A stretch of 64,000 nt of DNA from a virus. This document shows positions 13,248-59,183 of this stretch, piece by piece. How positions within the stretch are numbered: the first letter of the stretch is position 1; every line of letters starts with the position of its first letter. The translations under genes were made by a program, and so were the position numbers. Location: the IMG/VR virus record IMGVR_UViG_3300043411_001639, positions 1 through 64,000 of that record, one strand, 5' to 3'. The notes under the pieces were generated by a model, which saw only the letters and a list, made by a program, of their open reading frames with translations, ran no database searches and was not told the DNA's origin.

Positions 13248-16214
13248 ATGAAAACCCTCAATCAAAAACTATTTGTTGAAACAGAACTAAAGTGGCTGAA
13301 GCATTGGGAAAAAACCGATGTATTCAAGAAAACACTAAGGGGCGAGAAAACCTATGTTTTCTATGATGGTCCTCCTTTTGCTACAGGTTTACCTCATTAT
13401 GGACACTTGTTAGCTTCTGTGGTAAAAGATGTTGTACCACGTTACTTTGCAATGAATGGTTTTTTGGTTGAAAGACAGTTTGGTTGGGATTGTCATGGTG
13501 TTCCAGTTGAGAATGAAGTACAGAACCAACTAGGTTTGTTTTCAAATAAACAAGTTGTTGACTATGGAGTTGACAAATTTAATGAAACATGCCGTTCTGT
13601 TGTAAGACGTTATACTCAAGAATGGAAAGAAACTGTCCATAGAGTAGGACGTTGGGTTGATATGGAAAAACCGTATCACACAATGGACTTTGATTTCATG
13701 AATTCAGTCTGGTGGGTTTGGAAAGCTCTCTATGATAAGAACCTAACCTATCAAGACTATAAAGTTGTACCATATTCTGTTGGACTAGGTTCAGGTCTAT
13801 CAAACTTTGAGGCTGGACAGAACTATAAAACAGTTCAAGATCTTAGTTTAACAGTTGAGTTTGAAACAGATAACGGATATACTTTACTAGCTTGGACAAC
13901 GACACCTTGGACACTTCCAATGAATGTTGGCCTTGCTGTAAATCCAGAACTAAACTATGTTGTAGTTGAACAAAACAACAAACAATATGTGGTAGCAGAG
14001 AATCAACTAACAAACCAGTTTGTTGCTGGAACATCAGTCAAACAAACTCTAAAAGGTACTGATTTAGTAGGACTAACCTACAAACCTCTGTTTGGTTTTT
14101 CCTGTAAAAATCCCGAAGTAGTAGCAGGATCATTTGTTACTGATAGTTCTGGTACTGGAGTTGTTCATTTAGCTCCTTGTTATGGAGAAGAAGATTTTAG
14201 TTGTGCCAAAGCTAATGATCTTCCTTTGTTTCATGGTGTAAATGATGAGGGAAAATACTATCCTGGATTTGGTGAATTGTCGGGCAAACTAGCCTTTGAT
14301 TCAAACAACCTAGTAGCAGAACTTCTAGGAGATAAAGTTTATAAACAGCAAGTTTATGAGCATGAGTATCCTTTCTGTTACAGAACAGATACTAGACTTA
14401 TGTACCGCGCTGTAAATAGCTGGTATGTAAAGGTAGAACAGAATAGGGGGCAACTTCTAAAAAACAACAAGTTAACAAACTGGAATCCTGAATCTCTCAG
14501 GGATGGAAGATTTGGAAACTGGCTAGAAAACTGTAGAGATTGGTCTGTTTCACGTAGTAGATTTTGGGGAACTCCTCTGCCTGTATGGTTAAACAAACAA
14601 GGAGAAGAAGTTTGTTTTGGTTCTGCTAAAGAACTAGAGGAAGCTACAGGAGTTGTTTTAACAGATCTTCACAGTCATTTCTTAAAAGACGTTGTGGTTA
14701 AATCTAAACAAGGTGGCGATGATCTTGTTTGGTGTGGTTTTGTGTTTGATTGTTGGTTTGAAAGTGGAGCTATGCCTTATGCTAAGGTTGGTTTCCCTTG
14801 GAAAACCCAAACACTTAACACTCCAGCAGATTTTGTTGCCGAAGGACTTGATCAAACAAGAGGTTGGTTTTATACCCTTAGTGTTCTTAGTACACTGTTG
14901 TTTGACCAACCACCGTTTAAAAACGTAAGTGTTAATGGACTTGTTCTTGCTGAAGATGGCAAGAAGATGTCAAAAAAACTAAAGAACTATCCAGATCCTT
15001 CAGAAGTTCTTGAAGCTTATGGTGCTGATGCTCTAAGACTTTATTTCATGAGCAAACCAGTTGTTTGTGGGACTGAAATGAAGTTTTCTAAGAAAGAAGT
15101 TGAAGAACAAGTTAAGAAAAACGTTCTTAGACTTTATAATGCCTATCACCTGTTTGTTACCTATGCAAATCTACATGATCTTAAACCAACTGGAACAGTT
15201 CAACCAACTAAGTTCTTAAACAAATACTTGGTTGAACTTACTAATAACCTTACCTTTAATCTTTCTCAAGCTGTTGAATCATATCACCTTGAAAAAGTAA
15301 CAGGGTTTGTTACTGAGTATGTAGAGAACCTAGTAAACAACCATGTCAGACTAGCTAAACCGTTACTAAAACAAGGTGATGTTGAAACATTAAACGTAGG
15401 TTATCAGTGTTTACTCCAACTAGCTGTTAGTTTAGCACCTTTTACACCTTTCATGGCAGAAGAGTTTTATCAATCACTTGAAGGTCCACTAGAGAGTGTT
15501 CACCTTGAGAGTTATCCTAAACCTGAAAACCTGTTTAGTGTTTATGAAAAACAAATGGTAAGACTAGTAGAGGTTCTGGAGTTAGGGAGAAACTACAGAG
15601 AAAAACACAAACTTAGTTTAAAACTACCTCTTAAAACAATGGTAGTTTATGAGAACAACCTTGATGTTCTTGATGAGTTAAGAGAACTGGAAGATTGTTT
15701 AAAACAAGAACTAAACTTTGAACAGGTGTTGTTTAGTTCTGATGTTGAGTCTGTGTTTGATTTTAAAGTCAAACCCAACTTTAGCCTTCTTGGAAGAAAA
15801 CTAGGGCCTGAGATGAAATCATTTGTTGTTTATTTGGCAACTCTTGATACTCAAACAACACTCAATCTTGTCAAGACAAGAACAGGATTACAGTTTAAAG
15901 GAGTTGAAGTAACGTTTGATGAACTGGTTGTTGAAAAATTATCAAAACTCCCAGATGTTCTTACAACACCAAAGTATTGTTTAAGGTTTGATCTAACAGT
16001 AGATGAAAAACAACTTGAACAAGAACGGGAAAGAGAACTGTTCAGAGAAGTACAGGAACTACGTAAACAACTAAAACTAACTCCGGGTGATAAAGTAGTT
16101 CTGTGTTCAACAGAAGTTCCATCAGAAAGCCTTAGAAACAAACTAATGACAGAAGCTTTTGTTGTTGGGTTCAACACTGGTTCAGAAACAATGATGTTGC
16201 AACCTGTCCCGTGA
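13248..16214 (+). CDS. ileS: isoleucyl-tRNA synthetase, type II (eukaryote/archaea-like)
   Basis: YDGPPFATGLPHYGH, GWDCHG, WTTTPWTLP (CP1 editing), DWSVSRSRFWGTPLP, EGLDQTRGWF, KMSKK; long type-II C-terminus without the Zn finger. Confidence 0.96.
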   Translation: MKTLNQKLFVETELKWLKHWEKTDVFKKTLRGEKTYVFYDGPPFATGLPHYGHLLASVVKDVVPRYFAMNGFLVERQFGWDCHGVPVENEVQNQLGLFSNKQVVDYGVDKFNETCRSVVRRYTQEWKETVHRVGRWVDMEKPYHTMDFDFMNSVWWVWKALYDKNLTYQDYKVVPYSVGLGSGLSNFEAGQNYKTVQDLSLTVEFETDNGYTLLAWTTTPWTLPMNVGLAVNPELNYVVVEQNNKQYVVAENQLTNQFVAGTSVKQTLKGTDLVGLTYKPLFGFSCKNPEVVAGSFVTDSSGTGVVHLAPCYGEEDFSCAKANDLPLFHGVNDEGKYYPGFGELSGKLAFDSNNLVAELLGDKVYKQQVYEHEYPFCYRTDTRLMYRAVNSWYVKVEQNRGQLLKNNKLTNWNPESLRDGRFGNWLENCRDWSVSRSRFWGTPLPVWLNKQGEEVCFGSAKELEEATGVVLTDLHSHFLKDVVVKSKQGGDDLVWCGFVFDCWFESGAMPYAKVGFPWKTQTLNTPADFVAEGLDQTRGWFYTLSVLSTLLFDQPPFKNVSVNGLVLAEDGKKMSKKLKNYPDPSEVLEAYGADALRLYFMSKPVVCGTEMKFSKKEVEEQVKKNVLRLYNAYHLFVTYANLHDLKPTGTVQPTKFLNKYLVELTNNLTFNLSQAVESYHLEKVTGFVTEYVENLVNNHVRLAKPLLKQGDVETLNVGYQCLLQLAVSLAPFTPFMAEEFYQSLEGPLESVHLESYPKPENLFSVYEKQMVRLVEVLELGRNYREKHKLSLKLPLKTMVVYENNLDVLDELRELEDCLKQELNFEQVLFSSDVESVFDFKVKPNFSLLGRKLGPEMKSFVVYLATLDTQTTLNLVKTRTGLQFKGVEVTFDELVVEKLSKLPDVLTTPKYCLRFDLTVDEKQLEQERERELFREVQELRKQLKLTPGDKVVLCSTEVPSESLRNKLMTEAFVVGFNTGSETMMLQPVP

Positions 16215-39054: not shown

Positions 39055-39705
39055 TTATGGTTCTTGATGATCTGGTGTATGATCCCAAACACTGTCTTTG
39101 AATTTAATGTTCTTGTTATACCAGATATTCATCTCTCCAAGATCTTCTTGGAATCCCTCAAAAGTTAAATAATCTAAAGCAGTCTGAGTGTCAATTTGTT
39201 TGACTACTTTGACTGTTTCTGGATCTAACAATGGTTCACCGTCTGAACCAACATCATACGTAATAAAAACAAACTCACCATCTGAGTTTTCTTGTAAACT
39301 CTCCACAGGCAGTAGTTCTCCCGTGACTATATATACCTCATCGTTAGCTATGGGTTTGATAAAAAGCTCCCAAAGCATGTGCTGAAAGTATTCCCTGCTC
39401 CCACCTGTTGAATATCTAGCACGGCTATGGTTAGGTGCTTGTATCTCATAATACTTCCCATATTTCTTAACAAAATAAACAGATAGACCGTTTTCTTTTG
39501 TTTTACCCCACATCATATCATTTCTAAATTCCGAGTCTAACCCTACCCTGCTCCTAGTAGTCTCATCGTATCTCCCAAATCTAATAAATAAGTGTGCTTT
39601 ATTATCAAGCATCTCAGAGTTCCTGACTCTAGGGAGTGACTTGATGTAGTTGGAGTATTCCTCATGATCTTGTTCAAACAACCAGTTAGCTAATACCAAA
39701 CTCAT
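39055..39705 (-). CDS. putative virion-internal protein (capsid-targeting-like N-terminus)
   Basis: the only long minus-strand ORF in the early region; starts MSLVLANWLFE; upstream TAATTA. Confidence 0.65.
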   Translation of the reverse strand: MSLVLANWLFEQDHEEYSNYIKSLPRVRNSEMLDNKAHLFIRFGRYDETTRSRVGLDSEFRNDMMWGKTKENGLSVYFVKKYGKYYEIQAPNHSRARYSTGGSREYFQHMLWELFIKPIANDEVYIVTGELLPVESLQENSDGEFVFITYDVGSDGEPLLDPETVKVVKQIDTQTALDYLTFEGFQEDLGEMNIWYNKNIKFKDSVWDHTPDHQEP

Positions 39706-47204: not shown

Positions 47205-47705
47205 GTGGTAATCATGGCTCAATCTCTGAAAGAACTTCTGGCATTCTCTGAAACTGCGGAGTACCTCACCCTTCCCAACAAGAACCAAGGTGCTATTCTT
47301 TCAAAGATCACACGTCTTCAAACACAAGAAGCTCATAATCTGCGTGAACAAGAAAAAGAGAAGGCAAGGATTCTTCGCCAAAAAGCAGAAGATGATGTTT
47401 TTAATGCTCTGAGAACCAAGAGCATTCAAGAAATCTCTTCTGTGATGAAAGGATTTATTCCGATCTATTCCTTCCATAATCCCGTTCCGTTTACTGTTAA
47501 TTTTCTTAGAGGTAACAACGGAAACGTTACATTTAACTGTGATAGCGAGCCTCATTTCTCATACAAAGATCTTCGGGAACTTTCAAAGAGACTCGGGACT
47601 GATACCATTACCTTCTCTAGTAAAAAACACACCACCAGATATGATCTGGACTATGACAACAACTGGACGTTTACTATCTGTTTCCCTTGGAACAAGGGAG
47701 TGTAA
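47205..47705 (+). CDS. family C protein
   Basis: GNVTFNCDSEPHFSYKDLRELSKRLGTDTI. Confidence 0.7.
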   Translation: MVIMAQSLKELLAFSETAEYLTLPNKNQGAILSKITRLQTQEAHNLREQEKEKARILRQKAEDDVFNALRTKSIQEISSVMKGFIPIYSFHNPVPFTVNFLRGNNGNVTFNCDSEPHFSYKDLRELSKRLGTDTITFSSKKHTTRYDLDYDNNWTFTICFPWNKGV

Positions 47706-48801: not shown

Positions 48802-50302
48802 AGGACTATGAAGCTGACCAAGACTGAATCGGCAATCATCATGGCACTGAAAGGTATGCTAGAACCTTTCGTGGGAAAGTCAGGTGTGCTTTACTATCTC
48901 CGACAGATCGTTTGTTGTGTGGAAAACAACGATCGTCATGGGATGAAGTGCAGTGTTGGATACTTGTCCAACATAGACGATGAACGTAAAAATCCCGCAA
49001 ACAACTGGAAGGAAGACTATGAAGCCTGATCCAAACAAATATCTCGGTCCTGTTGTTGACTTTCAGGTCAACACCAAAAAACAACTTTCCAACACTGAAA
49101 AGATGGTTCTCAGTGCTGCTATTGGGGCATTGACAGGTGCTCGTTACTATGCGGGTGAATCCCGTGTTCTTTCTTTCACTCAAGAGCTTCTCTGTAACAT
49201 TCGTGACTCCGATGTTGAAGGTGCAAAGCATCACTTCAACAAACTGATTTCTCTTCTCTAGAAGGAATCAAGCCATGATCGTAGAACACGGCAAAGAAAA
49301 CGGTTATCCTCAGATCACTGTTTTCAAGTATGATGTGGACGGGAACAAAGTTCCTGTTCTTACGGTCTATGAATTCGGAAACGGGATGAGGTTCAATCAT
49401 TCTGGAGGAACTGGTAACAACTTCTATCATCCTCGTTCTGTTTGGCCCTGTGATTGGGCGCATCTTTTCCGTTGCCGCTATCCCGGTTGTGAAGTTGAAA
49501 CAAAGGAATAAATAATGCTCGTACCTACTCCTGAAATGCTTAAACAAGCTCTGGAAATCATCAACAAGTTTTCGCCAATTCCAGAGGGCGATGTTGTTAA
49601 CAACCTTCCTGAAGGAAAGATTAACTTCAGCAACGGTGGTCGTTTGCTTTATAGTAACGCTCACGGTTTCAGGTTTGATTTTGTTCCTTTTGATCTGGTA
49701 GAAGGCAAAGGTTTCGTTCGTTATTTTCCAGATGAACAAACTAACTTCTACTGTGATGTTGTTTATATGATCAACAACAGGTTTCTCAACAAACAACTCT
49801 CCTGGTAATAAAACAATGACTGAACCTAAAACTCTTCAAGAAGTTGAACAAGAACTAGCAGAGATCTATGAAAGAACGTTCGGGATTTACAGGGATCTGA
49901 TGAAACACTCAGAAACTAAACTCCCTGACGCTAAACCTTTCATCGCAATGCGTCAAGCTATCTCTGCAATTCAAATGGAAACAATCAGACTCAGGAACGG
50001 GAAGTAGAAACAATGGTGGTTAACCGCACACAAGAACTTACTGATTACTTGGATCAACACGTAGTTGAGATGGTTTATCCGCCTGGATTCAAGTCAAGAG
50101 GTAGGATCTTCATTATGGCTTATAATGAGTGTTTCCCTGATGTTTCAAGATCTTGGCTAGAAACTTATATCAGGGCCACTTATCTTCCTGAGAAATATGG
50201 AATCAACGAAGAGAAAGTTGATACAATCTATGGATCTATGACAGCAACAGAAGTTGTAACTTGGTTCAAAGTTTACTGAAAACACAAGAAAGATAAAACA
50301 TC

Positions 50303-50680
50303 ATGTACGGGATTAAGAACAACAACGGTAAAACCATTCGTGGTATGTGGACAAATCTTTTGGATGCACGCGCCAGGGCTTGTCAACTTAGCCATTTAGA
50401 CAACTATATCTGGAAAGTAGTTAGTGGGGATCAAGTTCTGTGTTTGTTCCAGAATGGAAAAGAGATTATCCAAGATCTGTCTAAAGAAGAACGTGAACTA
50501 GCAACTGCTATTCATGGAAAACTCTGCCGCTACAACCATGAAGATCAGTGTGATTGGTTTTATGGTGATAGATGGGATCAAGAGTTTACTGCAAAACATG
50601 AGTATCTAAAGAAAGCTCGTGCTATGCTTGATAACGGTATTGAGCTTAATCAAGCAATGAAAGTTATCACCAACCTGTAA
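50303..50680 (+). CDS. hypothetical protein
   Basis: 125 aa; N-terminal domain paralogous to the ORF ending at 51084. Confidence 0.65.
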   Translation: MYGIKNNNGKTIRGMWTNLLDARARACQLSHLDNYIWKVVSGDQVLCLFQNGKEIIQDLSKEERELATAIHGKLCRYNHEDQCDWFYGDRWDQEFTAKHEYLKKARAMLDNGIELNQAMKVITNL

Positions 50681-51115
50681 CAACATCATGACAACTATAT
50701 CTCAGTTAAATCAAATCAGAAAACAACTTGACATTACTTGGGGAGATATCTCAAACAGTTTTAGGATATTAACCAACAGAACAGACCTGAATGAAATCTT
50801 TGTTGAGAATGTTTGTAGAAGGGTTGAAGATCCAATGAACTTTGAAGTAACTTGGAAACAATTCCTTAAAACAATGATCCATGCCTCTGAAAACAACTGG
50901 AGAAAATAAAACAATGTTCAAGATTGTAAACAGTGAAGGCGAAACCCTCAAAGGTCGTTGGAAATACTTGCTCAAAGCAAAAGAAAGAGCACTAAAAGAA
51001 AGTAACGAACACGGTTTTATTGTATTCGCAGTGATGGAACATGACACGGTAATTTATCGTTTTTGTTGCGGCAAACGAATCTAATAGTTCCAGTTTTCTT
51101 AACTTAGTCTCATAT

Positions 51116-51189
51116 CTCGTCATCTCCTAACTGGATAAGGAAGCAGTCTTCTAAACTGCGATATGGGGGTTCAAATCCCTCTGACGAGG
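51116..51189 (+). tRNA. tRNA-Arg(UCU)
   Basis: CTCGTCA/TGACGAG, GCAGT-CTTCTAA-ACTGC, GGGGG-TTCAAAT-CCCTC. Confidence 0.92.
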
Positions 51190-51209
51190 CTCAAGGAACA
51201 AATAATAAA

Positions 51210-51545
51210 ATGAGTAAACCATTGGTCTTTGTTGAATACTACATGGAGTTTGGTGATGGTGATGCTACAACAACAGGCTTTGTTGTTCTTCTAAAAACTA
51301 CCTGGGAGGAACAGAAACAGAAGTTCAACCAATATCTTGAAGACAAAGGTATTGAGTCTGTAACTGTTGAACATGATAACATGGAAGAAGAAGTAAACCT
51401 TGAGATGTATGAAGAGAAACCTTGTTCTCAAAAAGAACTTGAGACTCTAACCAAGTTCTTTGGTGACTGTCCTGAATATCGTAAACAAGAAGGTTATCTC
51501 TATTATCATGGACAGTTTCAACCACTAGAAGAACTGATGTCCTAA
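51210..51545 (+). CDS. hypothetical acidic protein
   Basis: 111 aa ORF. Confidence 0.65.
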   Translation: MSKPLVFVEYYMEFGDGDATTTGFVVLLKTTWEEQKQKFNQYLEDKGIESVTVEHDNMEEEVNLEMYEEKPCSQKELETLTKFFGDCPEYRKQEGYLYYHGQFQPLEELMS

Positions 51546-51755
51546 TGACAAAACAAGAAATTGAACAACAACTCAATAGAATCTATGAAGAAACAAAGAA
51601 TCTTAACTGGAGCTTAAAAGCATTAAACATAGATTCCAGCGAAGAACTTCACAAGATAAGAAACAATATTACTATCATTAAGTTCCAACTTGGAAAACAC
51701 AACTAATCCTGGTTATTAAACTACCGGAACAAACTCCACCTACTCTATCCAGCTA

Positions 51756-51929
51756 AAAGTCATGCCAAATCTACTATAGACTAGGGAGGGTTAAAGTCAT
51801 GCCAAACTACCCATATCCCCTACCCAAAAGTCATGCCAAACCAGAGTTGTTAGAAACCACCAGAAGTCATACCACGCACACCCGCACGAGACACAACAAC
51901 TGTTTTAGATAAACTCATGACATGCCAAA
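51756..51929 (-). repeat. array of 14-bp direct repeats carrying a sigma54 -24-like element
   Basis: AAAGTCATGCCAAA at 51756, 51793, 51827; degenerate copies at 51863 and 51916; minus strand reads TTTGGCATG. Confidence 0.85.
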
Positions 51930-52012
51930 CAAACCTTACCAGCGCCTCTACACTGCCCGCGGATATTCAAACCAACCATTTCCATCAACTGAATATAAAT
52001 CCAGCAAACCAG

Positions 52013-52041
52013 TTGCAACCACTGCCCGAACCTGCTAGAGT
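52013..52041 (+). promoter_or_regulatory. phage early promoter
   Basis: TTGCAA-17-TAGAGT; spacer identical to that of 48773. Confidence 0.85.
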
Positions 52042-52070
52042 AGGATCATCAAACGGGAAAGGAACTGACG

Positions 52071-52322
52071 ATGAGTGTCCTGAGAATCAAAGGTGTCAAG
52101 TTCGTAAACCGTCAACACCTGAAAGATCAGAAACAGATCCTCCTTCCCAATGAATACTATGAGAAACTGATCGGTGTTATCAACACACCAACCAAAGTAA
52201 CTCTGGCTTTCAAGTGTGGAAGACGCTGGAAGATGTACAGAGGATTCATCTACTCACAGACAGAAAGTAACTTCCGTTCAGAGTCTCAAACTCGCTGGTC
52301 TTGGCTCACTGTTGAAAAGTAA
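52071..52322 (+). CDS. hypothetical basic protein
   Basis: ATG after promoter and AAGGA RBS. Confidence 0.65.
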   Translation: MSVLRIKGVKFVNRQHLKDQKQILLPNEYYEKLIGVINTPTKVTLAFKCGRRWKMYRGFIYSQTESNFRSESQTRWSWLTVEK

Positions 52323-52549
52323 CATCAACTGACTCTCTCATAAAAGAAAAACAAAACAATGCATAACAAACTTGACCCCCGTGATCCCCGTTTCATTGAG
52401 TTTTACCTTTCTGGAGGAGATGTTCCGAAAGAGGTAAACGACAAAAACCCCAGTACTTCTCTTAGTTCAGAGGAGTCTGAGGTGCTTCTTAACCAGGGTT
52501 TCTATAAGCCTGTTGCTACAAAAGAAGGCGTTGGATTCAAGAACAACTG

Positions 52550-52729
52550 ATTGACACTCATAGTCTGAACAGTTAGGTGAACCCTTCAACAACCCAACGG
52601 AGCGTTTTCCTAACTGTTCAGGCAATGAACTACTGTCCGCGCTTCATTCATAGAGCGCCCGTCGTTGATTGCCTGAAACCCTCTCAAACCGGAATAACCT
52701 GGAATCTTTGGAAAACCCTAGAGGCAAAA
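52550..52729 (-). ncRNA. putative antisense-oriented structured RNA
   Basis: downstream of the only minus-strand promoter; hairpins CTGAACAGTTAGG/CCTAACTGTTCAG (52565-52621) and TTCAGGCAAT/ATTGCCTGAA (52617-52677). Confidence 0.55.
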
Positions 52730-52735
52730 CAGTTG

Positions 52736-52764
52736 ACACTAGCAGCTCTCACAGAGGGTTGCAA
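52736..52764 (-). promoter_or_regulatory. phage early promoter, minus strand
   Basis: reverse complement reads TTGCAA-CCCTCTGTGAGAGCTGC-TAGTGT. Confidence 0.85.
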
Positions 52765-52780
52765 CAGAGAAGTTTCATCT

Positions 52781-52796
52781 AGCAACCTCCGTGCCA
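52781..52796 (-). promoter_or_regulatory. sigma54 (RpoN) -24/-12 box
   Basis: minus strand TGGCACGGAGGTTGCT, perfect TGGCACG-N4-TTGC. Confidence 0.75.
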
Positions 52797-52802
52797 AAAC
52801 TG

Positions 52803-52821
52803 AGATTAGCTGAACTAATCT
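52803..52821. promoter_or_regulatory. palindrome with CTGAA core (type A) at the divergence centre
   Basis: AGATTAG-CTGAA-CTAATCT. Confidence 0.7.
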
Positions 52822-52826
52822 AGCTG

Positions 52827-52855
52827 TTGCAACCTCTCTTGGAACCTGCTAGTGT
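52827..52855 (+). promoter_or_regulatory. phage early promoter
   Basis: TTGCAA-17-TAGTGT. Confidence 0.85.
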
Positions 52856-52906
52856 CGGGTTGTCAGGTGAGGGATAGCAGGGCAGAACGAACGAAGGAAA
52901 AAAACC

Positions 52907-53050
52907 ATGATGGAACTCTCGCTCAACTTCTCCGTTTCTCTGGAAACCATCACGGGCTTCACGCCGGTTTTCGTGAGCATCATGGCCGCGTGTTTCGTCA
53001 TGGGAGCGTCTCTCCGGTTCCTGGTGTGCAAGGTCCGCGCCAACTTCTAG
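52907..53050 (+). CDS. small membrane peptide (47 aa)
   Basis: MMELSLNFSVSLETITGFTPVFVSIMAACFVMGASLRFLVCKVRANF; own promoter, AAGGA RBS; not in ORF track. Confidence 0.6.
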   Translation: MMELSLNFSVSLETITGFTPVFVSIMAACFVMGASLRFLVCKVRANF

Positions 53051-53070
53051 AAGTTAGCTGAACTAACTTC
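53050..53070. promoter_or_regulatory. palindrome with CTGAA core (type A)
   Basis: GAAGTTAG-CTGAA-CTAACTTC. Confidence 0.7.
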
Positions 53071-53075
53071 GGGTG

Positions 53076-53104
53076 TTGCAACCTCTGAGAGAACCTGCTA
53101 GGGT
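53076..53104 (+). promoter_or_regulatory. phage early promoter (leaderless)
   Basis: TTGCAA-17-TAGGGT; ATG 53111. Confidence 0.85.
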
Positions 53105-53110
53105 AAGAGC

Positions 53111-53221
53111 ATGAAAAAGGCGAACAAGGGCAAGCGGTGGAACAAGCGGGAAAAACGCCGCAACGAATCGCTGGACGGTCGCAAGCAACGGCGCAAGTTT
53201 CTCGCGAGTCTCACTGACTGA
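53111..53221 (+). CDS. 36-aa highly basic peptide
   Basis: MKKANKGKRWNKRENARNESLDGRKQRRKFLASLTD; leaderless start; not in ORF track. Confidence 0.6.
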   Translation: MKKANKGKRWNKREKRRNESLDGRKQRRKFLASLTD

Positions 53222-53222
53222 C

Positions 53223-53238
53223 TGGCATAGAGGTTGCA
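53223..53238 (+). promoter_or_regulatory. sigma54 -24/-12 box
   Basis: TGGCATAGAGGTTGCA. Confidence 0.7.
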
Positions 53239-53253
53239 ACGGAAAACCAACTG

Positions 53254-53282
53254 TTGCAACCTCCCCGAAAGGGTGCTAAGGT
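53254..53282 (+). promoter_or_regulatory. phage early promoter (tRNA pair)
   Basis: TTGCAA-17-TAAGGT. Confidence 0.85.
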
Positions 53283-53309
53283 AGAAGAGTAGGTAACAGA
53301 AGGAAGAAA

Positions 53310-53392
53310 GCTCTAGTGGCGGAATGGTAGACGCGGGGGTTTCAAAAACCTCTTCCCGCAAGGGAGTGAGAGTTCAAGTCTCTCTTGGAGCA
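53310..53392 (+). tRNA. tRNA-Leu(CAA)
   Basis: GCTCTAG/TTGGAGC, GGGGT-TTCAAAA-ACCTC, TCCC-GCAA-GGGA variable arm, GAGAG-TTCAAGT-CTCTC. Confidence 0.92.
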
Positions 53393-53435
53393 CAAAAGCC
53401 ACAAACGGCGCGGCAGTGTCGTTGGCTTGTCTCTT

Positions 53436-53508
53436 GCAACGGTAGCTCAACTGGCAGAGCATTCGGCTTTTAACCGAAGGGTTGAGGGTTCAAGTCCCTC
53501 CCGTCGCA
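53436..53508 (+). tRNA. tRNA-Lys(UUU)
   Basis: GCAACGG/CCGTCGC (one mismatch), GCTC/GAGC D stem, TTCGG-CTTTTAA-CCGAA, GAGGG-TTCAAGT-CCCTC. Confidence 0.9.
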
Positions 53509-53515
53509 CCGTGGT

Positions 53516-53531
53516 CGGCACCAGTCTTGCA
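53516..53531 (+). promoter_or_regulatory. sigma54 -24/-12 box
   Basis: CGGCACCAGTCTTGCA (GG-N10-GC spacing kept). Confidence 0.6.
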
Positions 53532-53546
53532 AACAAAAAAAGGCTG

Positions 53547-53575
53547 TTGCAACCAACCCCGCAACCTGCTAGTCT
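53547..53575 (+). promoter_or_regulatory. phage early promoter
   Basis: TTGCAA-17-TAGTCT. Confidence 0.8.
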
Positions 53576-53610
53576 AAGAATGTAGCAGGAAACAACCAAC
53601 GGAGTCAAGA

Positions 53611-54003
53611 ATGGCAAAGCGCACGACGGAAGAAACCATCGCTCACACCGTCAAGGTCAAGGGTATCGTCGCCGACCGCTCCGGCATCAACAACACGCGT
53701 GGCGCGCGTGCGATCATCGCGTCGGAAGTCTTCGGCGTCTCGCAGACACTCCGCAACCACGGCGCCGCCGCCGTCTTCGCGCTCCGCAACGGGGATAACG
53801 TCGTGGTGCTGTCCCGCGTCGCCCGCAAGGGCCGCCCGCGCTGGAGGCAAGTCGGGCACGGATCTTCCACGGTCATCACGTTCGCCCGCGTGCTCTCCGG
53901 TGGCAAGGTTTCCAAGGTCGTCAAGGCGTCCACGCTTGCGGAGCTCTGCAACAAGGGTGCCCGCTACATCGGGACGCGCGCCAACCTCTACGGCAACGGC
54001 TAG
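53611..54003 (+). CDS. GC-rich basic hypothetical protein
   Basis: GGAG RBS, G/C-ending codons in this frame, own promoter. Confidence 0.8.
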   Translation: MAKRTTEETIAHTVKVKGIVADRSGINNTRGARAIIASEVFGVSQTLRNHGAAAVFALRNGDNVVVLSRVARKGRPRWRQVGHGSSTVITFARVLSGGKVSKVVKASTLAELCNKGARYIGTRANLYGNG

Positions 54004-54010
54004 AACCCGC

Positions 54011-54026
54011 TGGCACGAAGGTTGCA
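54011..54026 (+). promoter_or_regulatory. sigma54 -24/-12 box
   Basis: TGGCACGAAGGTTGCA, perfect consensus. Confidence 0.75.
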
Positions 54027-54051
54027 AGGGCAAGGCAAAGAAAACCCGCTG

Positions 54052-54080
54052 TTGCAACCTGTTTCGGAACCTGCTAGAGT
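54052..54080 (+). promoter_or_regulatory. tandem early promoter 1 of 3
   Basis: TTGCAA-17-TAGAGT. Confidence 0.85.
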
Positions 54081-54136
54081 CTGAATGTAAGGTGAGAGGT
54101 AGGGAAGACAGAGAACCGGAAGGAAAAAGAATCCGG

Positions 54137-54165
54137 TTGCAACCCTCCCCGAAACCTGCTAGAGT
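54137..54165 (+). promoter_or_regulatory. tandem early promoter 2 of 3
   Basis: TTGCAA-17-TAGAGT. Confidence 0.85.
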
Positions 54166-54214
54166 CAGAGAGTGAGAAAAGGAACGGGGCCAGAAACTAG
54201 ACGAAACAATCTGG

Positions 54215-54243
54215 TTGCAACCCTCCGAAGAGTCTGGTAAGGT
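54215..54243 (+). promoter_or_regulatory. tandem early promoter 3 of 3
   Basis: TTGCAA-17-TAAGGT. Confidence 0.85.
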
Positions 54244-54314
54244 AAGAGTCAGAAAGGGAGTCAGGGTGGCAATGTCGCCTAGCCCACTCCCAAACCAGGA
54301 AAGAAAAAAGAATA

Positions 54315-55034
54315 ATGAACTCCATCAACGCCACCTCGCCCGTCGTTTCCTCGGATTCCATCGTCGCCGACCCCAACGCCTCGCAGGAGAACACCATGCA
54401 CACCCCCGACAACTCCGCCGACGCTTCGCCCCTGTCCATGCGCCCCGCGGATCGCGCCGCCCGCGGCGAGTCCCTCACGCCCGACGAGGAGGGCGCGCTC
54501 GCGGCCAGCGACGCGGCGGAGTTCCTCGCCTACCTCCGCGCACAGCGCGCGTACCTCGCCTCCGCGCTCGCGGCGGCGAAGGCCCCCAAGGTTCCGGGGA
54601 AGCGCGGGCCGCAGGGTCCCCAGCGCGGGAAGGTGGTCACGCTGGCCGACGGCCGGATGATGATCGTCGGCGCGGGTCTCGGCAAGCGGGCCGCGTTCAA
54701 TTCCGCGAAGGGTGCGCTCGGGGCGCGCGCGGAGCTCCTCCCCGGCGACGCGCTGAACATCGCCCTCGTGACGTTCGGGGCGGACGGGAGCGGCGTCCTC
54801 TACACCGTCAACGGTGTCGCGGGCGAGACGCCCCGCGGGAAGGGTTCGCCCGGTGTGTCGCTCTCTTGCACGCGGGCGGACAACGGCGAAGAGGTCGTGT
54901 TGTTTCCGACGATGGATTCCATCGTGGACGCGGTGTGCATCACGGGTTCCGCGGCGCTCCTCGCGGTGCTTCCGGTGCTTCAAGCGCAGAAGGTGCGCGC
55001 CGCGCGCGCAGCGAAGACGCCCGCCACGGTCTGA
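54315..55034 (+). CDS. very GC-rich Ala-rich hypothetical protein
   Basis: third codon positions almost all G/C in this frame; behind three promoters; possible internal start at MHTPD (AGGAG RBS). Confidence 0.8.
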   Translation: MNSINATSPVVSSDSIVADPNASQENTMHTPDNSADASPLSMRPADRAARGESLTPDEEGALAASDAAEFLAYLRAQRAYLASALAAAKAPKVPGKRGPQGPQRGKVVTLADGRMMIVGAGLGKRAAFNSAKGALGARAELLPGDALNIALVTFGADGSGVLYTVNGVAGETPRGKGSPGVSLSCTRADNGEEVVLFPTMDSIVDAVCITGSAALLAVLPVLQAQKVRAARAAKTPATV

Positions 55035-55062
55035 CGCCTCACCCGCCAGAATCCCACCTAAA

Positions 55063-55119
55063 GAAACCCCCCGCGACGACCCTAGAGAATAGGGAACCGT
55101 CCGGGGGTTTCCCCGTTTT
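55063..55119 (+). terminator. terminator-like hairpin
   Basis: GAAACCCCC/GGGGGTTTC stem with inner CCCTA/TAGGG, followed by GTTTT. Confidence 0.55.
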
Positions 55120-55184
55120 ACAACTTTGACCCCCTCTAGCCCCTGTACCCCCCCACCTCTACCTACCCGGACCCAGGAGGTGGT

Positions 55185-55200
55185 TGGCATGGAGGGTGCA
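55185..55200 (+). promoter_or_regulatory. sigma54-like box (one mismatch)
   Basis: TGGCATGGAGGGTGCA. Confidence 0.45.
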
Positions 55201-55225
55201 TGACCCACGAGATTCTAAACCAGAT

Positions 55226-55247
55226 AAAATTTTTCTGGGAATTTTTC
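55226..55247 (+). repeat. 22-bp direct repeat, copy 1 (phased T-tracts)
   Basis: AAAATTTTTCTGGGAATTTTTC, followed by TATTTA. Confidence 0.85.
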
Positions 55248-55264
55248 TATTTATGGGGACCTTT

Positions 55265-55903
55265 ATGTTATATTTTTCTAAATGGTTGTTTGAAAACGAC
55301 AATATAATTGATGATTTAAATACAGTGTTTTCAATTCAAGAAACTATAAAAACTGTTGAACAACATGGTTTAGAGCAGCTTGGTTTAGGAAACAACGAAG
55401 GAACAACAAGAATTGTTTTTAAACATCCAAATAACAAACAAGTGATTAAAATACCAAGACAAACAACATATCTCAAATATAATTTTAATGAGATTAAATC
55501 ATTTGCTTGTCTTGGAAAAGAATATGCTGCTGAGATAACAGAGTTTCATCCTAAAGGTTATTGGTTGATAATGGAACTTGTTAAACCATTTAAAGATCAT
55601 CAAGAGTTTAATCAGAAACTCCAACAAGTTTTAAACTTACCAGATACTATCAATGACGAACGTTTTTTATATAAAGCAGTGGTTCAGTTTAAAGAACAAG
55701 AAAGATTAAAACTTTCAACTAAACTATGTCATTCAAGTGAATGGTTTAGAAAACTTACAACCAAACTTTCCAGTTGTGAAGTAGGAGGACAAGATTTAAA
55801 CTGGTTTAACTTTGGATTAAGAGAATCAACAGGTGAATTGGTTATGTTAGACTATGCTGATTTATTAACAAATCCGGCTGTTCAACAACCTTGTTCCATT
55901 TAA
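55265..55903 (+). CDS. minimal protein kinase-like paralogue 1
   Basis: EGTTRIVF, VIK, NE, WLIME, DLNWFN, LDY; start ATG 55265 (MLYFSKWLFE) preferred to 55184. Confidence 0.8.
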   Translation: MLYFSKWLFENDNIIDDLNTVFSIQETIKTVEQHGLEQLGLGNNEGTTRIVFKHPNNKQVIKIPRQTTYLKYNFNEIKSFACLGKEYAAEITEFHPKGYWLIMELVKPFKDHQEFNQKLQQVLNLPDTINDERFLYKAVVQFKEQERLKLSTKLCHSSEWFRKLTTKLSSCEVGGQDLNWFNFGLRESTGELVMLDYADLLTNPAVQQPCSI

Positions 55904-55944
55904 AACTAAAAAAGGTTCATAAAATAGGGCGGGTAATGCCTCTG

Positions 55945-55966
55945 AAAATTTTTCTGGGAATTTTTC
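55945..55966 (+). repeat. 22-bp direct repeat, copy 2
   Basis: identical to 55226..55247, followed by ATATTTA. Confidence 0.85.
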
Positions 55967-55984
55967 ATATTTACCTCTAGTCTG

Positions 55985-56491
55985 ATGATAACATTACAAG
56001 AGTTTATATTTCTTCAAGAGGGAGACTTAAAACTAGTATCTCTTCATGGATGTGGGGAAGATAGTTTTGATATTGAACTTGATAATGATGAGGTTATAGA
56101 TTGCAATGATATAGCATCTAGTGTTGAGGAATTGTTTTACGATTCAAAGATTAGAATCATGAGGAATGAGAATCCTTATAATGCTATAATTGATTCTGGT
56201 ACTGGAAGGGTGATAGGGGCTAGTGTTATATCTTATGAACTACCAGAGGATTATGATGAATTTGAGCATGGTAATGGGGTTGTAACATTTAGTGTTGTGG
56301 TTGATCCAGAGTTTAGGGGACAGAGATTAGCTGAGAAGTTAATAAGGGATATAGTGAATAATCATAGGAGACAAGTTATCAAGGCTCAGGTTATTAATCC
56401 TATTATGGAGAAGATACTTATTAACTTAGGATTTGTTAAGGTTAGTGAATCAGGTTCTAGAGAAGGATTGGTTTATCAGTTAAAGAGATGA
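55985..56491 (+). CDS. GNAT-family acetyltransferase
   Basis: SVVVDPEFRGQRLAEKLI (motif A), N...LGF; N-terminus MITLQEFIFLQE. Confidence 0.85.
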   Translation: MITLQEFIFLQEGDLKLVSLHGCGEDSFDIELDNDEVIDCNDIASSVEELFYDSKIRIMRNENPYNAIIDSGTGRVIGASVISYELPEDYDEFEHGNGVVTFSVVVDPEFRGQRLAEKLIRDIVNNHRRQVIKAQVINPIMEKILINLGFVKVSESGSREGLVYQLKR

Positions 56492-57204
56492 ATAGTTTAT
56501 TTATGTTTGATCGGTTTTTGTTTGAGACTACTATTAATATCAATCCAGATAAAGTTATTTATGATCTTAAACAGGCAACAAGTTTTGGTGAGATTCAAGA
56601 GATAGGATATAAACTTAAACAGATAGGTGATGGTACTACTAGGAACGTGTATGACTTAGGAAGGAACCTTGTTCTCAAACTAGCAAAGTATCCTAATAAT
56701 AGTATCAGTAATTTAAAAGAGGTAGATTCATATCAGTGTTTAGGAAAAGAATACGCAGCACAGATAGTTGATTTTGATACAGAGAACTATTACTGGTTGG
56801 TTATGGAGAGGGTTAAAACTATAACAGCTAGAGAATTTCAGTCAAAGTTAACAGAGCTTATAGGATTTCCATTAACTCCAGAAGATATAGCATCTAGGTT
56901 TAAGACTGTTATTAGTAAAGAAGTTTATGTGGTGGGCGGTTATTATTATCTTCCACAGGTGTTACAACCTGGAAGATATCATTCCGGTACAGAGAGAGGA
57001 AGAGGATTAAGACAGTTACATGGTTTGTTATGCGGTCATAGTTCTTGGTTTAAGGAATTCAATAATAGATTAGTTAAGTGCAGAATTATGGCTGGTGATC
57101 TTGGATTTGGTAACTTTGGATTAAGACTGTCAACGGATGAGTTGGTGTTACTTGATTATGGGTTTGAGATGATTGAAGGGGATCAGATTGAATGTCATTC
57201 TTGA
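56488..57204 (+). CDS. minimal protein kinase-like paralogue 2
   Basis: IGDGTTRNVY, VLK, KE, WLVME, DLGFGN, LDYG. Confidence 0.85.
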   Translation: MNSLFMFDRFLFETTININPDKVIYDLKQATSFGEIQEIGYKLKQIGDGTTRNVYDLGRNLVLKLAKYPNNSISNLKEVDSYQCLGKEYAAQIVDFDTENYYWLVMERVKTITAREFQSKLTELIGFPLTPEDIASRFKTVISKEVYVVGGYYYLPQVLQPGRYHSGTERGRGLRQLHGLLCGHSSWFKEFNNRLVKCRIMAGDLGFGNFGLRLSTDELVLLDYGFEMIEGDQIECHS

Positions 57205-57869
57205 TGAAGATATTGTTTTTTGAGGATAGGAACAGTGATGTTTTTGATGGTATTACTGAGTTTAGTTCTATTAAGAAGACATTGTTAGTTAACAAGTTTA
57301 AGTTGATAGGTCATGGTACTACTAGGGATGTTTATTCTGTTCCAGGTGATGATAGTATTGTTTTAAAGGTTCCAAGGTATCCAGATGCATTTGAGGTTAA
57401 CTTCAGTGAGTTTAAGAATTTTGGTTGTTTGGGGGAGGAGTATGCAGCTCGTGTAATAGATTGTGATACAGTTAACGGTTTATGGTTATTGATGGAGCGT
57501 GTTATAACATTTAATCATTCTGATAAATTTGATATTGAGGTTAGTAAAAGGTTAGGGTTTGAGTTTAGTAAAGGTGGAATGATTAAGAAGTTTGGATTAT
57601 CTCCTGATAGTATTGCGAGGTTTCCTTTATTATCTTCGGCATTTGCTCCTGGTGATTATGACAAGGGTATTAATTTAAAGGAATTACTTTGTAAGAACAG
57701 TAAATGGTTTAGGGAATTGAACAACAGGTTAATTGATTGTGATGTTTACGCGGAGGATCTTGATTTTAAAAACTTTGGATTAAGAAGAGATACTGGAGAG
57801 TTAATATTACTTGATTATGGATTTAGTGCTAGTAAAGATAGTACATTAGGGGTACAGTCAAAATGCTGA
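57204..57869 (+). CDS. minimal protein kinase-like paralogue 3
   Basis: IGHGTTRDVY, VLK, SE, WLLME, DLDFKN, LDYG; TGATG-coupled start 57204. Confidence 0.85.
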   Translation: MKILFFEDRNSDVFDGITEFSSIKKTLLVNKFKLIGHGTTRDVYSVPGDDSIVLKVPRYPDAFEVNFSEFKNFGCLGEEYAARVIDCDTVNGLWLLMERVITFNHSDKFDIEVSKRLGFEFSKGGMIKKFGLSPDSIARFPLLSSAFAPGDYDKGINLKELLCKNSKWFRELNNRLIDCDVYAEDLDFKNFGLRRDTGELILLDYGFSASKDSTLGVQSKC

Positions 57870-57939
57870 TGAATCTGAATGAGTTTATATTTTTAAAGGA
57901 ACTAAAGAGTTACTTGGTTAGACCTAAAAACTATCAGTA

Positions 57940-58362
57940 TTAAGAGTTGATGAATTGATTTAATTTATTATTAAACTCAGTATCTTCTGGAAGTTTTGTT
58001 ACTATGATTTCTGTTGGATTGGGTTTGAATCTCTTCTCACCTTTGTTTACTAGTTGGTTATAAGCTAGGAACTCAGTGCTGCTTAGAGCTGTTAAAATAG
58101 TTTCCAGTGCTGTTTTAAGATAGACTAGTACCTTTGGATTTTTATAATCTAGCAAAGAAAGATCTAGTGTTAGAGCGGACATTAATCTAAAGTTAAAGTT
58201 GATAGGATTGATATTTTCTTCTATTAGTATCAGGTTTTGACTGTTTAAATCTTTGATGTTGTTAGGGAAGTTCCTGTTTAAGAAACCTACCAAACCAAGA
58301 ACTAGGAATAGTCTTAGTTTTAGTGACAGCACTGACAGTTTGTTTTTTATTGAAGTTATCAT
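57940..58362 (-). CDS. hypothetical protein with N-terminal hydrophobic segment
   Basis: 140 aa ORF, divergent from the amidase. Confidence 0.5.
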   Translation of the reverse strand: MITSIKNKLSVLSLKLRLFLVLGLVGFLNRNFPNNIKDLNSQNLILIEENINPINFNFRLMSALTLDLSLLDYKNPKVLVYLKTALETILTALSSTEFLAYNQLVNKGEKRFKPNPTEIIVTKLPEDTEFNNKLNQFINS

Positions 58363-58373
58363 ATCTATAGTAT

Positions 58374-59183
58374 ATGAGTATTATAGCTGGTAACACAAAA
58401 CATGAAATTCCTGGTCTGAAAACAATCTGTTGGGAAGACAGTGCTACAGATCAGATTAAATATATCACAGATAAATCTGATAGAAAACAATGGATCAGAG
58501 GTATTGTATGTCATACTAACAAAGGGAAGACAGGAGTTGTTTTACCTGGAGTTGGTAGTGATAGCGGTCAAGCTGTTAAACTTGCTAGATATCAGACAAA
58601 CACAGACAGACAAGTAAGCTGGGATTTTACAGAAGAACAGGATGGTGTTTGGTATATTCAGAACGATGTATTAAAACACTATAGTTGGCAAGCTGGAATG
58701 GTTAACGGGGTTACTTGTGGATTTGAGATGGTACAAGGAGAAGATGGATCTGTCTACGAGATACAGATAAAGAATGCTGTATTGTTTATAGATTTTCTTA
58801 CTGCACGTCTTGGGATACAGAGACAGATACCATGGGACAAGAAAAAGGATAAACCTGCTAGTAAACCTATAAAGAGAATCAGTGAAGACAACGGAGTTGA
58901 TGTTGTGGGTATTTATGGACATAGAAACCAAACAGACAACAGAGGTTTTGGTGATCCAGGTGATCATATATTTTATGCTCTAAGAGATGCAGGTTATGAA
59001 CTGTTTGACTATGACAACCAAGAAGATCTTAATACCTGGAAAACAAGACAGACAGAGGTTCTTAGTTTAACTTCTGGAGTTGATGGTGTTTGCGGTCCTA
59101 AGACTGTTGAACTGTTAAAACAACATGGTTATAAACACGGTATGTGGGTTTCAAGACCTATGGATAGTTTGATACAGTTATAA
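58374..59183 (+). CDS. N-acetylmuramoyl-L-alanine amidase (Amidase_2) with C-terminal peptidoglycan-binding motif
   Basis: GIVCHT, GFE, YGHR...DPG; VDGVCGPKT. Confidence 0.8.
   Translation: MSIIAGNTKHEIPGLKTICWEDSATDQIKYITDKSDRKQWIRGIVCHTNKGKTGVVLPGVGSDSGQAVKLARYQTNTDRQVSWDFTEEQDGVWYIQNDVLKHYSWQAGMVNGVTCGFEMVQGEDGSVYEIQIKNAVLFIDFLTARLGIQRQIPWDKKKDKPASKPIKRISEDNGVDVVGIYGHRNQTDNRGFGDPGDHIFYALRDAGYELFDYDNQEDLNTWKTRQTEVLSLTSGVDGVCGPKTVELLKQHGYKHGMWVSRPMDSLIQL

Follow-up and report, generated by a model that had tools for sequence, protein, structure and literature searches.

Minimal kinase-like proteins and an acetyltransferase with leaders resembling capsid targeting sequences in an uncultured T4-like phage

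The IMG/VR record IMGVR_UViG_3300043411_001639 is an AT-rich sequence of 156.7 kb (GC content ~35%), estimated to be 43% complete, and it comes from an uncultured, T4-like freshwater phage. The window analyzed here is its first 64,000 nucleotides; features given by genome positions refer to the whole record. Toward the end of the window, five successive open reading frames (ORFs) on the + strand form a cassette. The first, kinase A (55265..55903; 212 residues), starts with the leader MLYFSKWLFE (55265-55294), which is followed by a minimal protein-kinase-like domain that matches the PHROG family phrog_4301 (E 4e-13). Next come a GNAT acetyltransferase (55985..56491; 168 residues; leader MITLQEFIFLQE, 55985-56020) and kinase C (56488..57204; 238 residues; leader MNSLFMFDRFLFE; phrog_4301 E 1.3e-11), the start of the latter overlapping the stop of the former (ATGA). 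Kinase D (57192..57869; 225 residues; leader MSFLMKILFFE; phrog_4301 E 7.6e-15) and a remnant ORF of 26 codons (57863..57943), in which the leader M(LM)NLNEFIFLKE is joined to an unrelated tail of 13 residues, complete the cassette. An initial annotation of this DNA had described three paralogous kinase-like ORFs of 212-238 residues flanking a GNAT, with kinase motifs and with a short hydrophobic N terminus ending in Glu on all five products. The ORFs are indeed as described, the motifs are present and kept across the family alignment, and the five N termini all fit a single pattern.

The enzymes of the cassette

Kinases A, C, and D are 35-36% identical to one another, with 49 invariant columns in their alignment, and all three match phrog_4301, a family without assigned function (E 1e-11 to 8e-15). 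Their conserved motifs, namely the Gly-loop GxGTTRxV, Lys59 within VLK, Glu73, D189-L-x-x-x-N194, and L-D208-Y, correspond to the Gly-loop, the β3 Lys, the αC Glu, the catalytic Asp..Asn, and the DFG-equivalent, metal-binding Asp of kinases, and this catalytic set is complete in all three proteins. In an alignment of 114 single-domain family members, K59, E73, W98, and D208 are invariant, and G42, R45, N70, D189, and N194 are at least 90% conserved. A fourth phrog_4301 paralog, first recovered by a scan of N termini alone, is found at genome 81426-82187; it starts with MKFNKFIFLE, and its catalytic Asn is replaced by His or Glu. The family is large: when 1.84 billion proteins were searched with a profile of the three cassette paralogs, 864 representative clusters (50% identity) were retrieved at E ≤ 1e-3.

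AlphaFold yielded a confident model of kinase D, with a predicted local distance difference test score (pLDDT) of 89.6 and a predicted template modeling score of 0.85. Foldseek matched it with a probability of 1.0 to the bilobal kinase fold, including OspG, PRPK/Bud32, APH(2''), NleH2, CDK2, PknB, and many eukaryotic-type kinases; OspG is the top match, and it leads the list together with PRPK and APH(2''). Alignments with VIA-align reached Z scores of up to 8.4 over 140-150 residues. At the sequence level, the profile weakly matches SteC (the best, E 0.015), APH, and MST4, and no curated Pfam kinase family was reached, the best score being that of YrbL-PhoP_reg, a protein-kinase-like family, with 19.3 bits against a cut-off of 31.5 and over the Gly-loop region only. 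As modeled, kinases A, C, and D are minimal enzymes with a protein-kinase-like fold, for which phosphotransfer activity is predicted.

The chain ends approximately 15 residues past the DFG-like Asp, and it therefore contains neither an activation loop nor a classical, peptide-binding substrate lobe. This architecture has a bearing on the likely substrates. It is conceivable, if somewhat doubtful, that these proteins phosphorylate small molecules, such as aminoglycoside-like compounds, nucleotides, or lipids, rather than host proteins, whether or not they are packaged. The missing parts would be in keeping with such a role, and the likeness of the model to the small-molecule kinases APH(2'') is about equal to its likeness to protein kinases (Foldseek 1e-4; VIA Z 8.2-8.4; APH profile E 0.047). 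However, the large helical substrate lobe of APH-type small-molecule kinases is missing from the phage family, and the best matches include effector or atypical protein kinases that lack the same parts as the phage proteins, namely OspG, NleH2, SteC, PRPK/Bud32, and RIO.

Many relatives of these kinases are single polypeptides composed of 2-4 tandem modules, with four of them in P0030 and P0078. A leader-like Φ..ΦΦΦE motif (Φ, hydrophobic residue) lies exactly at the module joints in P0009, P0017, P0046, and P0148, and to judge from these sequences the tandem modules look as though a prohead protease cut the joints.

The identity of the acetyltransferase, as first annotated, is borne out by its fold and by a marginal Pfam match, Acetyltransf_1 being reached with 21.1 bits against a cut-off of 20.7. 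Foldseek matched the model with a probability of 1.0 to RimI/RimJ, SpeG, PAT, and Naa60, with no subfamily singled out. Motif A reads R-G-Q-R-L-A in the cassette protein and R-G-Q-(R/K/Q)-L-A across orthologs, to be compared with the consensus Q/R-x-x-G-x-G/A, which binds the pyrophosphate of acetyl-CoA; the fourth position is never Gly. The GNAT and kinase genes are adjacent in four kinds of loci, which are the window, its close relative L007, the pair L013/L017, and L006. The last of these belongs to a distant phage, whose GNAT is 41% identical and stands tail to tail with a kinase homolog split into two ORFs (L006:7431-9459). The L006 GNAT ORF reads through from an upstream region of 190 residues, after which come an internal Met and a leader-like EFLFE.

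The remnant ORF can be understood by comparison with related loci. Relative to L007, 360 bp are absent from the window, and the junction, at ~57896, is located just after the remnant leader. L007 itself keeps the first 48 and the last 31 residues of the protein, and in L012 the gene is intact, encoding 418 residues and beginning with a start of the same type. The 26-codon ORF thus represents the last trace of a cargo gene, in agreement with its earlier reading as a decayed member of the cassette. Across window positions 55919-58500, DNA identity to L007 is 77.5% in the cassette and 94.9% in the adjacent downstream flank. On this comparison, the cassette appears to evolve faster than its surroundings and to be a local hotspot of divergence or exchange.

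A portable leader peptide

The leader is a hydrophobic N-terminal peptide of 10-13 residues that ends in Glu, and in all five ORFs of the cassette it fits the pattern Φ-x-x-Φ-[LI]-[FAY]-x(0-2)-E within the first 17 residues. In the 156.7-kb record this pattern is present at nine of 209 ORF N termini, as compared with 0.25% of internal 17-residue windows (~0.5 expected), an enrichment of about 17-fold. Four of the nine ORFs are adjacent genes of the cassette, and a fifth is the fourth phrog_4301 paralog. The motif scan also yielded a gene on the - strand of the window (39055..39705; 216 residues) that starts with MSLVLANWLFE and whose homologs keep a different leader, MMLSFNQFLFE, on the same body. 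Similarly, the homologs of an ORF recovered by the N-terminus scan at genome 142356-143069 keep a Glu-terminated hydrophobic leader of another sequence on the same body. The bodies of these two proteins are without a match in Pfam or PHROGs, and for that of 39055-39705 the ESM Atlas gave no lead. Two more ORFs conform to the strict pattern, at window 47214-47705 and genome 155795-156244 (MAQSLKELLAFSE and MNDEILLLTELLFVE). The start of a 988-residue ORF at window 13248-16214, MKTLNQKLFVE, resembles the leader as well, a match that may be a coincidence.

Several observations concur to define the leader as a portable module that is not part of the enzyme folds. First, it is disordered in the models, with a mean pLDDT of 35 for residues 1-12 of the GNAT and of 57 for residues 1-10 of kinase D, when the domains themselves are predicted with confidence. 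Second, it is absent from the kinase homolog of Yersinia phage fHe-Yen9-04, which starts directly before the Gly-loop. Third, it is swapped on orthologous bodies. GNAT orthologs that are at least 87% identical start with M(I/T)TLQEFIFLQE, and those that are 53-64% identical start with MKLSKLLFEE, MRLYPILFEE, or similar peptides on the same body, so that either MITLQEFIFLQE or MKLSKLLFEE can be found on one GNAT ortholog body. Fourth, it stands before bodies of at least 13 clusters, unrelated to each other by BLASTP, in the metagenome loci that harbor a GNAT ortholog. These bodies include kinase, GNAT, NUDIX (PF00293, 55-62 bits), and legume-lectin (PF00139, 52.8 bits) domains. Among single-domain members of the kinase family, ~55% carry the leader according to the patterns used, and most of the others have other Glu-terminated hydrophobic N termini.

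The most extended arrays are those of L013 (2014-8189) and L017 (3031-10078), in each of which ten adjacent genes all start with MKL(S/Y)xILFE. Their tagged bodies, of 136-279 residues, comprise a kinase, a GNAT, a NUDIX protein, a family of three paralogs, and bodies without assignment. In L013, homing endonucleases of the GIY-YIG and HNH types lie on either side of the cluster, which also adjoins replication genes including that of a family-B DNA polymerase. The codons of the L013 leaders vary synonymously, with AAG or AAA for Lys, TTA, CTA, CTT, or CTC for Leu, TCA, AGC, TCT, or TCG for Ser, and similar variation for others, which indicates that selection operates on the peptide rather than on a DNA or RNA element.

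That the cassette encodes ordinary, unpackaged enzymes, the N termini of which resemble each other by descent or because of a chance amphipathic helix, is highly improbable in light of these data. Three of the five leaders are carried by paralogs, and these could have been inherited. Descent does not account, however, for the presence of the leader on unrelated folds, which are the GNAT, the NUDIX protein, the lectin, and at least nine further bodies. Its exchange between orthologs, its disorder in the models, and its enrichment over internal windows argue against chance resemblance.

Probable capsid targeting and the genome setting

The initial annotation had likened these N termini to the capsid targeting sequence (CTS) of T4 internal proteins, MKTYQEFIAE (PMC8442874). 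Mutational work on the T4 CTS has assigned roles in targeting to residues 4 and 7, and in processing to residues 8 and 10 (PMC9026906). When the sequences are aligned on the Glu residue, the leaders are hydrophobic at exactly positions 4, 7, and 8 of the T4 CTS, and the Glu is kept; the GNAT leader and the T4 CTS have M-T-QEFI in common. Earlier publications describe the CTS concept itself and the varied internal proteins that follow a conserved CTS in T-even phages, and they suggest that the CTS is an evolutionary device for loading varied proteins (PMC3012670; PMC9026906). GFP and nucleases are likewise packaged by means of the T4 CTS (PMC3012670).

The phage has the machinery that such leaders would call for. 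At genome 135063-135683 it encodes a prohead protease of the gp21 type, which scores 76.7 bits with Peptidase_S77 (PF03420; cut-off 27) and matches phrog_207 (E 5e-47), and its head module follows a T4-like order, with the portal gene (phrog_213), two genes for small proteins, the protease gene, genes for more small proteins, and that of a gp23-like major head protein (phrog_138, E 2.5e-67). The N-terminal region of the head protein ends with VLQE before an Ala residue, to be compared with FLQE in the GNAT leader, and presumably resembles the propeptide of T4 gp23. Together with the match at the CTS positions, the portability of the leader, and its location outside of the enzyme folds, these features support in silico the reading of the leaders as capsid targeting sequences of the T4 type.

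Small proteins encoded beside the protease have a leader-like motif near their N termini (LKAIIKE, LVNLIAE). Leader-like starts are found in those encoded around the protease gene, at genome 135688-136086 and 134177-135058, and in another encoded near the tail tube gene, at genome 153774-154334 (MKITESSLKAIIKE and MKITIKELKAIIKE; LVNLIAE at residues 17-23). From their sequences, these small proteins could possibly be core or scaffold proteins with targeting or cleavage sites of their own. The differences between leaders from one lineage to another are as would be expected if each leader co-evolved with its own core. Immediately after the major head protein gene lies a homing-endonuclease-like gene coding for 584 residues, with GIY-YIG and HNH/Mom-like matches (genome 140620-142374; L003:10620-12374).

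The sequences upstream of the cassette genes are relevant to the timing of their expression. A 22-nucleotide repeat, AAAATTTTTCTGGGAATTTTTC, is present in two exact copies only in the 156.7-kb record, both in the cassette on the + strand. The first element (55226..55253) consists of the repeat and TATTTA (55248-55253), 17 nucleotides before the ATG of kinase A, and the second (55945..55973) of the same repeat and TATTTA (55968-55973), 17 nucleotides before the ATG of the GNAT. In L013, the first tagged gene has a similar arrangement upstream, GGGAATTTTT..TATTTA. Of 207 crude gene calls, 11 have TATTTA at 12-40 nucleotides upstream, where 2.5 would be expected. Among the genes preceded by the hexamer are those for the large terminase, portal, and tail tube, for an adaptor-like protein, and for the GNAT and two of the kinases (A and the fourth paralog), as well as a gene located in the scaffold region. 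The hexamer is thus a candidate late promoter element, which would be distinct from the TATAAATA of T4. In the form (A/T)TATTTA, it stands 12-31 nucleotides before the ATG of the large terminase, portal, tail tube, and adaptor-like genes and of other late genes, in the regions upstream of genome positions 122267, 132219, 136131, 143100, 154375, and 97722. The longer pattern TAT(A)TTTA is too rare in the record for its enrichment to be estimated, a scan for sigma-70 promoters and terminators remained at chance level, and a search of Rfam families in 50000-58500 returned only tRNAs, eight genes for which are present in the window.

Proposed delivery and related systems

The best explanation for these observations is that the cassette enzymes are delivered with the phage head. 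In this model, the genes would be expressed late, and the leaders, as CTS peptides of the T4 type, would attach the three kinases, the GNAT, and the other tagged proteins to the scaffolding core during prohead assembly and thereby incorporate them into the head. Once cleaved behind the terminal Glu of their leaders by the gp21-type protease, the released enzymes would remain with the packaged genome and be carried with it into a new host. There, they might act on host targets, for which the initial annotation proposed signaling or defense proteins, before phage gene expression, in the manner of T4 Alt but with phosphoryl and acetyl transfer in place of ADP-ribosylation. On balance, it is probable that the tagged enzymes are targeted to the prohead, processed, and delivered.

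A number of points weigh against this proposal. The evidence in its favor is entirely comparative. The cassette is located outside of the head module and adjoins the early region; its neighbors in the window are a GC-rich early block and a lysis-like gene. In their mature form, the proteins have acidic to neutral pI values, from 4.4 to 6.1, whereas IPI-III of T4 are highly basic. The call of a late promoter depends on a hexamer that is short and AT-rich, and the record shows no enrichment of the canonical late motif of T4, TATAAATA (2 + 6 copies). Finally, tblastn searches of 50,697 phage records with two distant members of the kinase family returned only the leaderless homolog of Yersinia Eneladusvirus jumbo phages, or nothing.

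The position of the cassette beside early genes rather than among head genes and the acidity of the cargo, unlike that of T4 internal proteins, would also fit with leaders that serve as tags for a role unrelated to the capsid, such as recognition by a modifying enzyme or partner, or as an amphipathic helix for membrane association or localization, in which case the enzymes would act in the infected cell. Such a role is nevertheless unlikely. In the tagged clusters of L013 and of the window, no modifying enzyme, including of the radical-SAM type, was found alongside the tagged genes, and the hydrophobic run, of only 3-4 residues, is too short for a membrane anchor or a signal peptide. The invariant Glu and the pattern at positions P7, P4, and P3 conform to the T4 CTS and also to the cleavage rule of gp21, of which the phage encodes a counterpart.

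In this proposal, the new part is the cargo, which brings together minimal kinases from a large family, with several diverging copies in each genome, and GNAT, NUDIX hydrolase, and lectin proteins. In the literature searched, none of these four types of protein is reported as head cargo of the T4 type, and no paper was found on packaged phage kinases or CTS-tagged kinases. Among the 50,697 phage records, blastn and tblastn searches with the cassette and with kinase D gave no match, and searches of viral contigs for related loci with kinase D, the three-paralog alignment, or the 114-sequence alignment produced nothing usable. There may be an even chance that the minimal kinases, with their 864 clusters, are standard packaged cargo of uncultured T4-like phages, which would deliver kinases, an acetyltransferase, and a NUDIX hydrolase as a pre-made modification set. 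They would then be the first packaged phage kinases, and the turnover of their paralogs would reflect an arms race with host defense or signaling proteins.

T4 Alt shows that a ready-made, injected enzyme can rewire the host at time zero. Should the proposal hold, injected enzymatic effectors would be a much broader strategy in environmental T4-like phages than the T4 model suggests, and phosphorylation and acetylation would join ADP-ribosylation among the takeover chemistries of the first minutes. From a practical standpoint, the leader provides a simple sequence rule to predict virion cargo from metagenomes, and the protein-packaging technology based on T4 could draw on the leaders as natural alternatives to its CTS tag.

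Among known systems, T7 gp0.7 is a phage protein kinase for host takeover that is made early from the injected DNA and is not found in the virion. The analogy with gp0.7 drawn in the initial annotation thus applies to the function as a host-takeover kinase, but not to the mode of delivery, since gp0.7 is expressed early and not packaged. No search with the cassette proteins revealed specific similarity to gp0.7.

The T4 proteins IPI, IPII, IPIII, and Alt likewise have a short propeptide with hydrophobic residues at P7, P4, and P3 and a Glu at P1, with unrelated cargo from gene to gene, fast cargo turnover, and processing by the gp21 protease, and Alt constitutes a precedent for a packaged enzyme that modifies the host (PMC3012670; PMC9026906; PMC8442874). 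Unlike the T4 internal proteins, the putative cargo considered here is made up of four kinase-like paralogs and a GNAT, to which relatives add NUDIX and lectin proteins. The leader consensus is Φ-L-F-E as opposed to F-I-A-E in T4, and up to ten tagged genes are found per cluster. In the giant phages phiKZ, 201phi2-1, and SPN3US, head-internal ejection (E) proteins lose their propeptides after Glu through the action of a diverged gp21 homolog, as is proposed here (PMC9026906; PMC5694885; PMC10052503). They differ by their S/A/G-x-E sites, their long propeptides, and the presence of virion RNA polymerase subunits among their cargo, and they have no short portable leader of 10 residues.

As for the kinases, their closest fold matches are the effector kinases OspG, NleH, and SteC, together with Bud32/PRPK and RIO (probability 1.0; VIA Z 7.3-8.4). 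All have in common with the phage proteins a core of ~170 residues, a Gly-loop, the β3 Lys, the αC Glu, the catalytic D..N, a DFG-like Asp, and the absence of an activation loop. Identity is only 15-20%, however, and the phage proteins differ in that their chain stops right after the DFG equivalent and in that they have extra helices between the hinge and the catalytic loop. Like OspG, NleH, and SteC, the phage kinases would be delivered into their target cell, but by the phage head rather than by a type III secretion system.

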